Source of the DNA: Syntrophorhabdaceae bacterium
Lineage (GTDB): Bacteria; Desulfobacterota; Syntrophorhabdia; Syntrophorhabdales; Syntrophorhabdaceae
Reading direction: 5' to 3'
Length of the DNA: 64,000 bases
Assembly (NCBI GenBank): GCA_963666485.2
Contig: CAXXUO010000008.1
Span: forward strand, 112,132 to 176,131
Shown here: one piece after another, positions 1,312 through 2,612 of the stretch
Layout of the letters: each line of letters begins with the position of its first letter
Position numbering within the stretch: position 1 is the stretch's first letter
Position numbers and translations under genes: made by a program
The notes under the pieces: generated by a model
What the model saw: only the letters and a program-made list of their open reading frames with translations
Database searches by the model: none
Told to the model about the DNA's origin: nothing

Positions 1312-1415
1312 GTGTCTTTGTATTTATTTCTTGGATTCGGGTGTGCACTACTTGAAGGTGTCACGATAAATAAAGGTGGGCAGGGCGGAGATGGAAAACC
1401 TTGTATGATACTCCC

Positions 1416-1606
1416 CGTGGAATATCACGAACAATCCATGATAGAAAAGAGAAAAAGGTTGCCGGTGTGGCAGGCCGTAAAAACCAGGGGATGATATCCC
1501 GTATCCAAGCTCGGGCCGCCACACCTTCTCCTTATAAACCCGGACAGTTGCAGGGGACTCGCAGGAGATCCCGCATTGCACAAGGAAGGGACACGGGAAA
1601 AAGGGG
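1416..1606 (+). ncRNA. Predicted IS110 bridge RNA (ends approximate)
   Basis: 5' hairpin, then a target loop (TAAAAACC 1478-1485 / ATCCAAG 1503-1509, enclosed by GGTGTGGC/GCCACACC) and a donor loop (ACAGTTGC 1544-1551 / ACAAG 1580-1584). These match the reconstructed target and donor sites. Confidence 0.85.
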
Positions 1607-1613
1607 TGATATC

Positions 1614-2549
1614 ATGGACGACGTCTTCATCGGGATCGACATATCGAAAGAGCATTGTGACCTCGCGGTCATACCGGGCGGCACGCAGAAGAGGTTTACA
1701 AACGACGAGGAGGGCCACGAGGCGATCCTTGCCTTCGTACTTCCTCTCAACCCTTCCCGCATCGTCATCGAGGCGTCGGGAGGATACGAGATGGGAGCAG
1801 TGCGTACCCTGGCGGACGGCAAGCTTCCTGTTGTAGCGGTCAATCCCCGGCAGGTGAGGGACTTCGCGAAGGCGACAGGCAGGCTCGCAAAGACGGACAC
1901 GATAGATGCAGGTGTCCTCGCGCAGTTCGCAAAGGCCATCGAGCCGGAGATACGGCCGCTTCCGGAGAAAGATGCCGAGGTGCTCCGTGCCCTCGTTGCC
2001 CGCAGGAGGCAGCTCATCCAGATGCTGACGATGGAGAAGAACCGCCTCGAGAAAGCGCCCGCTGCCGGAAGCGAGGATATCCGGAACCACATATACTATC
2101 TCACCGAGGCCTTGAAGAAGATCGACAAGGACATCTCGCGGACGATCAGGAAAAGCCCCCTGTGGAAGGAGAAGGAGACGATCCTCATGAGCATGCCCGG
2201 GGTCGGTCCCGTTATCTCCTGTAATCTCATCGCAGCCCTTCCCGAACTGGGGACACTGAACCGCAAGGCCATCGCGGCCCTTGTCGGGCTCGCCCCCTTC
2301 AACAGGGACAGCGGCAGATACCGGGGAACACGGACCATATGGGGAGGCAGGTCTCATGTCAGGGCCATACTGTATATGGGGACCATCAGCGCGATCAAGT
2401 TCAATCCTGCCATCGGGGCCTTCTATAAACGGCTCGTCGAAGCGGGAAAGGCCAAGAAAGTTGCGATTACTGCCTGCATGAGGAAGCTTTTGACCATTCT
2501 GAATACCATGATGAAGAACAAGACAACGTGGATCGAGGTCACCTCGTGA
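1614..2549 (+). CDS. IS110 family DEDD transposase / bridge recombinase (311 aa)
   Basis: [20 protein letters not shown] (DEDD), MPGVG, and RDSG (catalytic Ser); SD AAGGGGTG before ATG 1614. Confidence 0.95.
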
Positions 2550-2582
2550 AGAAGAAATCAGTTGACATCGAACACAGTTGCT

Positions 2583-2612
2583 TGGATCCCGGTGTCAAGC
2601 ACCGGGATGACG
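2583..2612 (-). repeat. REP-like palindrome, right arm
   Basis: Perfect 30-bp inverted copy of 1282-1311. Confidence 0.9.

Follow-up and report, generated by a model that had tools for sequence, protein, structure and literature searches.

In the 64,000-nucleotide stretch of DNA analysed here (the window), we identified an intact element of the IS110 group whose left end is predicted to encode a bridge RNA of the IS621 type, and this RNA very probably guides the recombinase in joining a circular form of the element to a host CGTC-type REP hairpin, in whose tail lies a CT that the circle also carries. The element is a new member of the IS621-type bridge-RNA system described in 2024 and represents no new mechanism. 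Its boundaries, four identical copies, catalytic residues, guide-DNA complementarity and guide-flank covariation were all observed in the sequence (Table 1).

Table 1. Features of the element and of its insertion site, in window coordinates.
Feature	Position	Strand	Basis
Host CGTC-type REP hairpin, left dimer partner, outside the element	1282..1311	+	CGTC tag, 9-bp stem, 5-nt loop, CCA tail
Left half of target, GGAAAAC	1393..1399	+	AAAAC ends 5/5 left junctions in the genome
Left CT core, where the element begins	1400..1401	+	Comparison of genome copies
Right donor half TGTAT (1402-1406); predicted junction-promoter -10 box TATGAT (1404-1409), which shares bases with it	1402..1409	+	
Predicted bridge RNA (ends inferred); 5' stem-loop 1416-1440	1416..1596	+	Fold, homolog alignment
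Target-binding loop: left guide TAAAAACC 1478-1485, inner hairpin 1488-1500, right guide ATCCAAG 1503-1509, handshake 1510-1511	1464..1525	+	Fold, stem covariation, guide-target covariation
Donor-binding loop: left guide ACAGTTGC 1544-1551, inner hairpin 1554-1572, right guide 1575-1576 + 1580-1584, handshake 1585-1586	1539..1590	+	Alignment, pair counts, donor variants tracked by guide
IS110 recombinase gene, 311 aa	1614..2549	+	Pfam, NCBIfam and PDB matches
-35 box TTGACA of the predicted circle-junction promoter	2562..2567	+	Position in homologs, counted spacing
Left donor half, ACAGTTG at 2574-2580, then the right CT core at 2581-2582, where the element ends	2574..2582	+	Comparison of copies
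Host CGTC-type REP hairpin; its tail is the right target (TGGAT on the + strand, 2583-2587)	2583..2612	-	

The element proper covers positions 1400-2582 (1,183 bp) with CT at either end, and the span of 1393-2587 given in the initial annotation contains it together with 7 and 5 bases of flanking target. The boundaries were fixed independently by three further full copies aligning at 1183/1183 positions, plus a fourth left junction. The source genome (G000; 3.77 Mb, 10 contigs) carries four full copies (contigs C2, C3, C5 and C8), which are identical across 1,183 bases and occupy four different flanks, and a truncated fifth on C4 that stops after 401 bases; no PF02371 match was found in this genome beyond the four full copies. 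A look at other genomic copies had been proposed in the initial annotation, and they have the same boundaries and flanks of the form AAAAC-CT-TGGAT (5/5 left, 4/4 right). AAAAC stands directly before CT in every left flank, with matches to left-guide positions 2-7 of 5/6, 5/6, 6/6, 6/6 and 5/6, and the right flanks of the full copies read CT-TGGAT and start with TGGATCCCGG. Moreover, CT is present at both ends of 4/4 full copies and once in empty sites. Both the donor ACAGTTG-CT-TGTAT and the target GGAAAAC-CT-TGGAT previously derived from joined ends and joined flanks were found in the window. The left end measures 212 nt vs 31 nt for the right end; in the IS110 group the RNA-carrying left end is the longer one, an arrangement reversed in the IS1111 group (PMC11208160).

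In contigs from sequencing runs X1 and X3 the element continues into the flanking sequence of copy C5, and run X2 alone yielded a 133-base contig over the left junction in the window, with too few element-side bases to count as bridging; the raw-read run X23 gave 0 reads over the window. No joined-end form is among the joints listed for contigs of runs X1-X5, which is no test of the circle because contigs drop rare forms. This absence would suit a recently silenced relic whose parts look intact in an element no longer mobile, as would the filling of just 4-5 of about 35 available sites, when the genome of a sibling (G016) holds 58 left-end matches, and a left guide that mispairs the core T. 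Such a relic is nevertheless very unlikely, given that the four full copies, each in a different flank, do not differ at any of 1,183 bases, and given a reading frame with no stop or frameshift, and intact promoter boxes and catalytic residues. As a separate observation, the donor-loop region of the fifth copy (G000:C4:148775-149400) differs by one substitution and a 3-base insertion, and the copy stops near codon 63, where a cluster of another repeat with GGGGACGTCC-type ends interrupts it; some 390 bases further along there is an empty target site.

The recombinase frame matched PF01548 (93.1 bits) and PF02371 (69 bits), both over cut-off, and the NCBIfam model NF033542, 'IS110 family RNA-guided transposase' (239.5 bits; cut-off 140). 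Two solved structures alone were matched, ISCro4 (E 4e-38) and IS621 (E 1.8e-35), and identity to the IS621 protein is about one third, counted by eye on the alignment. Residues D9, E53, D95, D98 and S233 align with D11, E60, D102, D105 and S241 of IS621, and these five catalytic residues (DEDD plus the serine) are invariant in 13/13 aligned proteins. Proteins with 81-83% identity occur in Syntrophorhabdus records and in two genomes of the same genus; a match at E 1e-60 or better was present in 6/61 genomes searched, the source genome included, and the 90% cluster of the protein has four members, none of them named. Furthermore, the best matches in a plasmid search were 47-49% identical, with no ISfinder name among the best 25 of 1,261.

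Upstream of this gene, the left end is predicted to adopt the two-loop RNA fold of IS621, preceded by a 5' stem-loop. The left target guide matches the left target plus C at 6/8 positions, and the right target guide complements CTTGGAT exactly. When the 212-nt left end was shuffled 200,000 times by dinucleotide blocks, the 7-nt right target guide arose in 5,299 shuffles, the 8-nt left donor guide in 313, and both together in 11. Positions 1416-1613 alone fold no better than shuffles (z -1.34); the target loop alone gave z -2.06, and the donor loop alone is partly closed. On 34 aligned sequences, 93.3% of cells were paired over four helices against 37-47% in slid controls, the outer target-loop stem being a selection criterion for homologs and the other three helices independent of that selection. 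Stem pairs had changed on both sides in 19/25 cases, and the RNAalifold structure from the same sequences was nearly identical to the structure from pair counts. A comparison with Rfam gave three weak matches, all far under the gathering score, and no family fits.

Most of what the initial annotation had read from the left end and the gene held on closer analysis: the guide matches and hairpins of both loops are in the window, the 311-aa ortholog is intact, the DEDD and serine residues align with those of IS621, and the IS621-type architecture agrees with helices paired across 34 homologs and IS110 profiles over cut-off. The IS621 donor given there, identical to the present one at 12/14 positions, is confirmed by a supplementary table of PMC11208160. 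Two readings were refined. The right donor guide, given as ACAAG, is present in discontinuous form as AT, a 3-nt bulge (TGC) and ACAAG, and the left target guide, reported as a 6/8 match plus C, probably works over about 6 nt, as discussed below, and mispairs the core T. The latter mispair comes from the ninth base of the guide, an A, where T stands in 51/73 in-register homologs. In addition, the second handshake bases T1511 and A1586 could pair before exchange, giving two pairs before and two after, vs one before and three after in IS621 (PMC13626964). Both features, the A opposite the core T and the early-pairing handshake bases, may count against a fully efficient system.

Guide-flank covariation was assessed in 184 homologous loci, of which 101 were parsed, yielding 86 unique guide pairs; the parser located the target loop via stems and was blind to target sequence. 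The 83 dropped loci had no donor-loop motif (32), no target loop (20), no left core (9), no right core (12) or a short flank (10). Because donor-like ends and pairing of the target-loop stem were required for parsing, the values for the donor guide and the outer stem follow in part from the selection itself. It was used instead of a first regex parser, which had parsed 27/184 loci with visible mis-registration. The right guide matched its own flank at 4.59/5 positions vs 1.44 in shuffled pairings (86 pairs; 0/10,000 shuffles), the covariation that the initial annotation had named as a check, and left-guide positions 2-7 matched at 4.05/6 vs 2.12 (86 pairs; 0/10,000). The left donor guide reached 6.98/7 vs 6.55 shuffled (86 pairs; 0/10,000), a limited test in which ends and guide were located by one donor-like motif. 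Agreement between the donor-loop handshake base and target position 7 was 0.91 vs 0.75 shuffled (0/10,000), and the second handshake base gave no signal (0.21 vs 0.20). With one member per cluster (33 clusters at 65% identity), the values were 4.67 vs 1.47 for the right guide and 3.79 vs 2.25 for the left, and the handshake signal was reached in 1/10,000 shuffles. The right-target signal ends at position 14, falling from 81/86 to 22/86 at the next base. Position 1 of the left guide matches in just 11/86 homologs, which is no signal and suggests a working length of about 6 nt. In one homolog (L030, G048:C30), donor and left donor guide both read ACAGCTG; its right target matches at 5/5, its left flank at 1/6, and a guide-like stretch lies 5 bases further left.

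Judged from its sequence, the target belongs to a host repeat, a CGTC-type REP hairpin present in multiple copies, of which it forms the tail; this identity was missed by the initial annotation, which was right that target specificity differs from that of IS621. Read on the other strand, the right flank has a CGTC tag, a 9-bp stem starting AT, a 5-nt loop and a CCA tail. CGTC-tagged REPs have been described with a CGTC tag, an 8-9 bp stem starting AT, a 4-5 nt loop and a CCA tail, in multiple copies and as dimers (PMC3733652). The element sits 3 bases from the stem of the right hairpin, which is left whole. Our own pattern found 162 hairpin arms in the source genome, 40 of them preceded by CT, including the four right junctions of the element. 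Empty guide-matching sites, defined as CT with at least 5/6 of the left guide and 5/5 of the right guide, numbered 31 among all CT positions of this genome, and each of the 31 runs into the hairpin. Sites of the AAACCTTGGAT type lie in an ORF of 150 codons or more in 1/33 cases, vs 85% of random positions.

It could be argued that the recombinase chooses its site mainly by the REP DNA hairpin, the RNA match being secondary: the right flank is a hairpin in 4/4 copies, 2 bases of the right target lie within its stem, a hairpin follows 31/31 empty guide-matching sites, so that guide match and hairpin are inseparable in this genome, and integration of ISPpu10 is boosted by a target stem-loop (bioRxiv 10.64898/2026.03.19.712850). 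We consider this very improbable, since siblings with 81-83% identical protein sit in heptamer repeats rather than in the CGTC hairpin, as their guides predict, and 122/162 hairpin arms lack CT, none of which is occupied at that position. For ISPpu10 itself, base pairing is reported as required and the stem-loop as an enhancer only (bioRxiv 10.64898/2026.03.19.712850). Site choice by the bridge RNA is the reading that we prefer; more speculatively, the hairpin that overlaps the right target might act as a structural gate.

A perfect 30-bp inverted repeat surrounds the locus (1282-2612), and in the genome hairpins of this family also flank small GIY-YIG genes, from which one could propose a larger mobile unit spanning 1282-2612 that is mobilised by a repeat-associated nuclease and carries the IS110 gene as cargo. 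This proposal is hardly tenable. The other copies have in common 1400-2582 plus the right hairpin only, their left flanks diverging beyond AAAAC; for C2 and C3 no left hairpin was found in 160 bp of left flank, and such copy boundaries contradict a larger unit. Removing 1402-2582 rebuilds an ordinary repeat dimer whose arms are 91 bases apart, a spacing also seen in two intact dimers, and therefore we regard the inverted repeat as a host dimer and not as the ends of the element. The IS110 element proper, bounded by CT, remains the mobile unit in our interpretation.

Regarding the repeat itself, 0/40 target-type arms match the published degenerate Ssn-related motif (SRM), 39/40 failing at the last base alone, and 73/122 of the other arms match it (PMC11893778); because the targeted subfamily fails that last base, we call the repeat a CGTC-type REP and not an SRM. 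Ssn nucleases are encoded by small GIY-YIG genes flanked by repeats (PMC11893778). In the source genome, six matches to PF01541 were found, three of them with a CGTC hairpin on each side at no more than 700 bp. Short frames of the GIY-YIG type, roughly 90-110 aa long and similar to Ssn nucleases, were observed at C3:76010-76228, C1:77120-77335, C3:61825-61989 and C3:93284-93505; three have CGTC hairpins on either side, and the frame at C3:61825 looks split over two frames. A link between the insertion site and the Ssn cut site was considered and rejected, SsnA cutting upstream of the CGTC tag (PMC11893778), on the opposite side of the hairpin. An origin of the target as excision scars made by the element itself is also unlikely, as the target subfamily occurs in regular dimers with another arm type, and AAAACC(C/T)TGG-related tails are also carried by hairpins with other loops. 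Often, a target-type arm is accompanied by an arm of the other type at a distance of 52-95 bases (e.g., C1:185522-185684; window 1282-1399 + 2583-2612), and several paired arms with similar spacers suggest a REPIN- or MITE-like unit.

Siblings of the element provided a second setting in which guide and site could be compared. The sibling in genome G016 (83% aa identity) has the same donor, the left guide TTTAAAC-C and the right guide GTTCCAG, which differs from the one described here at three bases. Nearly all of its left-end matches (loci L044-L123) lie at contig ends; we read 42/58 of them (41 with flank) and 27/47 right-end matches, assuming that partial ends at contig breaks belong to one element. 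Right junctions read CT-GGAAC, the exact complement of the changed guide, in 26/27 cases, and in 3/3 in a further genome, G008. Left flanks match guide positions 2-7 in 39, 3, 33, 41, 39 and 41 of 41 sites, position 3 being mismatched in 38/41. These sites are heptamer tandem repeats (TGAAACC/TGGAACC). Sites of the AAACCTTGGATYCCGG type number 0 in G016 and G008 (88% and 99% complete) vs 33 in the source genome, and TGRAACCTGGAAC is present in G000, G016 and G008 alike (85, 64 and 47, respectively). A crude occupancy test against the 85 heptamer sites of the source genome gave 0.0075, on which we do not rely because only 5 sites reach 5/6 of the sibling left guide.

The tail of the CGTC hairpin, AAAAC-CT-TGGAT, and the heptamer repeat, TGAAAC-CT-GGAAC, have AAAC-CT in common. 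A tentative reading, which we hold as possible rather than probable, is that in these siblings a bridge RNA has been reprogrammed in nature, passing between two unrelated repeat families of the host by way of this shared half-site; three changes in the right guide would then have shifted the element between the repeats, the donor staying the same. Under such reprogramming, insertions matching the left half only may have served as a stepping stone, and locus L294 may be an intermediate. This locus of uncertain quality (1432-2625, 87% identical DNA) has the right guide of the present element and a frameshifted gene; its site, a single case, lies among heptamer-like repeats, matches on the left side only and lacks CT at the right junction, and may reflect a half-match insertion or an assembly error. 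Separately, two distant homologs from Dehalococcoidia MAGs (L130 and L134, 50% aa identity) have the right guide GGATT; the right flank of L130 is also a CGTC-like hairpin, and adoption of the same repeat class was probably independent.

For the proposed mechanism, the steps from circle to strand exchange are inferred from IS621, for which single-strand excision and half-match insertion have been reported (10.64898/2026.08.31.748434). Rare excision would join the ends into a circle, whose junction would create the promoter TTGACA-17-TATGAT and thereby supply more RNA and recombinase. This arrangement is a sigma-70 promoter by motif only and is found at 65/86 homologous junctions vs 1/86 inserted left junctions; a promoter scan of the linear locus did not list it, because it is present only on joined ends. 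Loop 1 of the RNA would then pair with both target strands, with (A)AAAAC-C on the first and CT-TGGAT on the second, loop 2 would pair with ACAGTTG-C and CT-TGTAT, and a recombinase tetramer would cleave beside CT through S233 and the DEDD site and swap strands. The core-adjacent handshake bases C1510 and G1585 would form their pairs with position 7 of donor and target once strands have been exchanged and not before, which would favour insertion. With the programmed 11-13 bases almost confined in this genome to one intergenic repeat subfamily, insertion likely avoids genes and always finds spare sites.

The element resembles IS621 and ISCro4/IS622 in its DEDD and serine recombinase, its CT core and its predicted handshake bases, and in a long left end with a 5' stem-loop and two guide loops, as well as in the predicted junction sigma-70 promoter and the REP-type target (PMC11208160; PMC11208158; 10.1101/2025.05.14.653916). 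With IS621 in particular it shares a donor identical at 12/14 positions and the discontinuous right donor guide (PMC11208160; PMC11208158). However, its protein is only about one third identical (by eye), its target is AAAAC-CT-TGGAT in a CGTC-type hairpin instead of ATCGGGC-CT-ACGCA (PMC11208160), its right guide pairs all 5 bases, and its left guide pairs about 6 with a mispair at the core T. ISPpu10 of Pseudomonas putida is likewise an IS110-group element with an intergenic REP target, a 6-position left and 5-position right interface and a stem-loop overlapping the target; its tested stem-loop lies on the left-target side, whereas here the 2-base overlap is with the right target (bioRxiv 10.64898/2026.03.19.712850). 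The repeat, in turn, agrees with CGTC-tagged REPs and Ssn-related motifs in its tag, 9-bp stem starting AT, 5-nt loop, CCA tail and dimers, and in the small GIY-YIG genes between repeats in this genome (PMC3733652; PMC11893778).

The closest relative in published data is a sibling in Durrant et al. 2024 (Supplementary Data 1 and 2, target_seq1609 / donor_seq1609), present there as an alignment row, with a closely similar left-end RNA, the same 14-base donor and the same right target guide ATCCAAG; its target, CCAAAC-CT-TGGAT, continues into the same kind of hairpin. It differs in its left target guide (TACAAAC-C vs TAAAAAC-C here), in its left donor guide, ACAGCTGC, and in its hairpin loops. 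The earlier suggestion that this member may not be known is consequently correct in a narrow sense, with a close sibling of the same right guide and hairpin target already in the 2024 data. A single supplementary file of that discovery paper contains the donor 14-mer 424 times, and the exact 12-base target string of the window was not found in the part of its supplementary files that was covered (PMC11208160). A literature search combining Syntrophorhabdus with IS110 found nothing, and among the matches listed for IS110 with Ssn, dRS3 or SRM none is evidently on such targeting; 'IS110' is also absent from the main text of PMC3733652 and PMC11893778. The element extends REP targeting by IS110 to the CGTC-type hairpin, a pairing not found described in the literature search, although a comparable target already appears in the 2024 supplementary alignment. 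As a compact 311-aa ortholog with boundaries, donor, target and all guides defined, it suits an ortholog screen. Moreover, the sibling pair, with the same donor, three right-guide changes and dozens of sites, is a natural read-out of mismatch tolerance and a testable case of guide drift to new safe-harbour repeats.

Beyond the element, an exact 14-base direct repeat is found at 1213-1226 and 1246-1259, 33 bases apart and operator-like, overlapping the predicted promoter of a minus-strand gene at 1-1164. This gene, as cut by the window, had no Pfam or NCBIfam match; by eye, we take it to have a helix-turn-helix-like start and a nucleotide-cyclase-like end.
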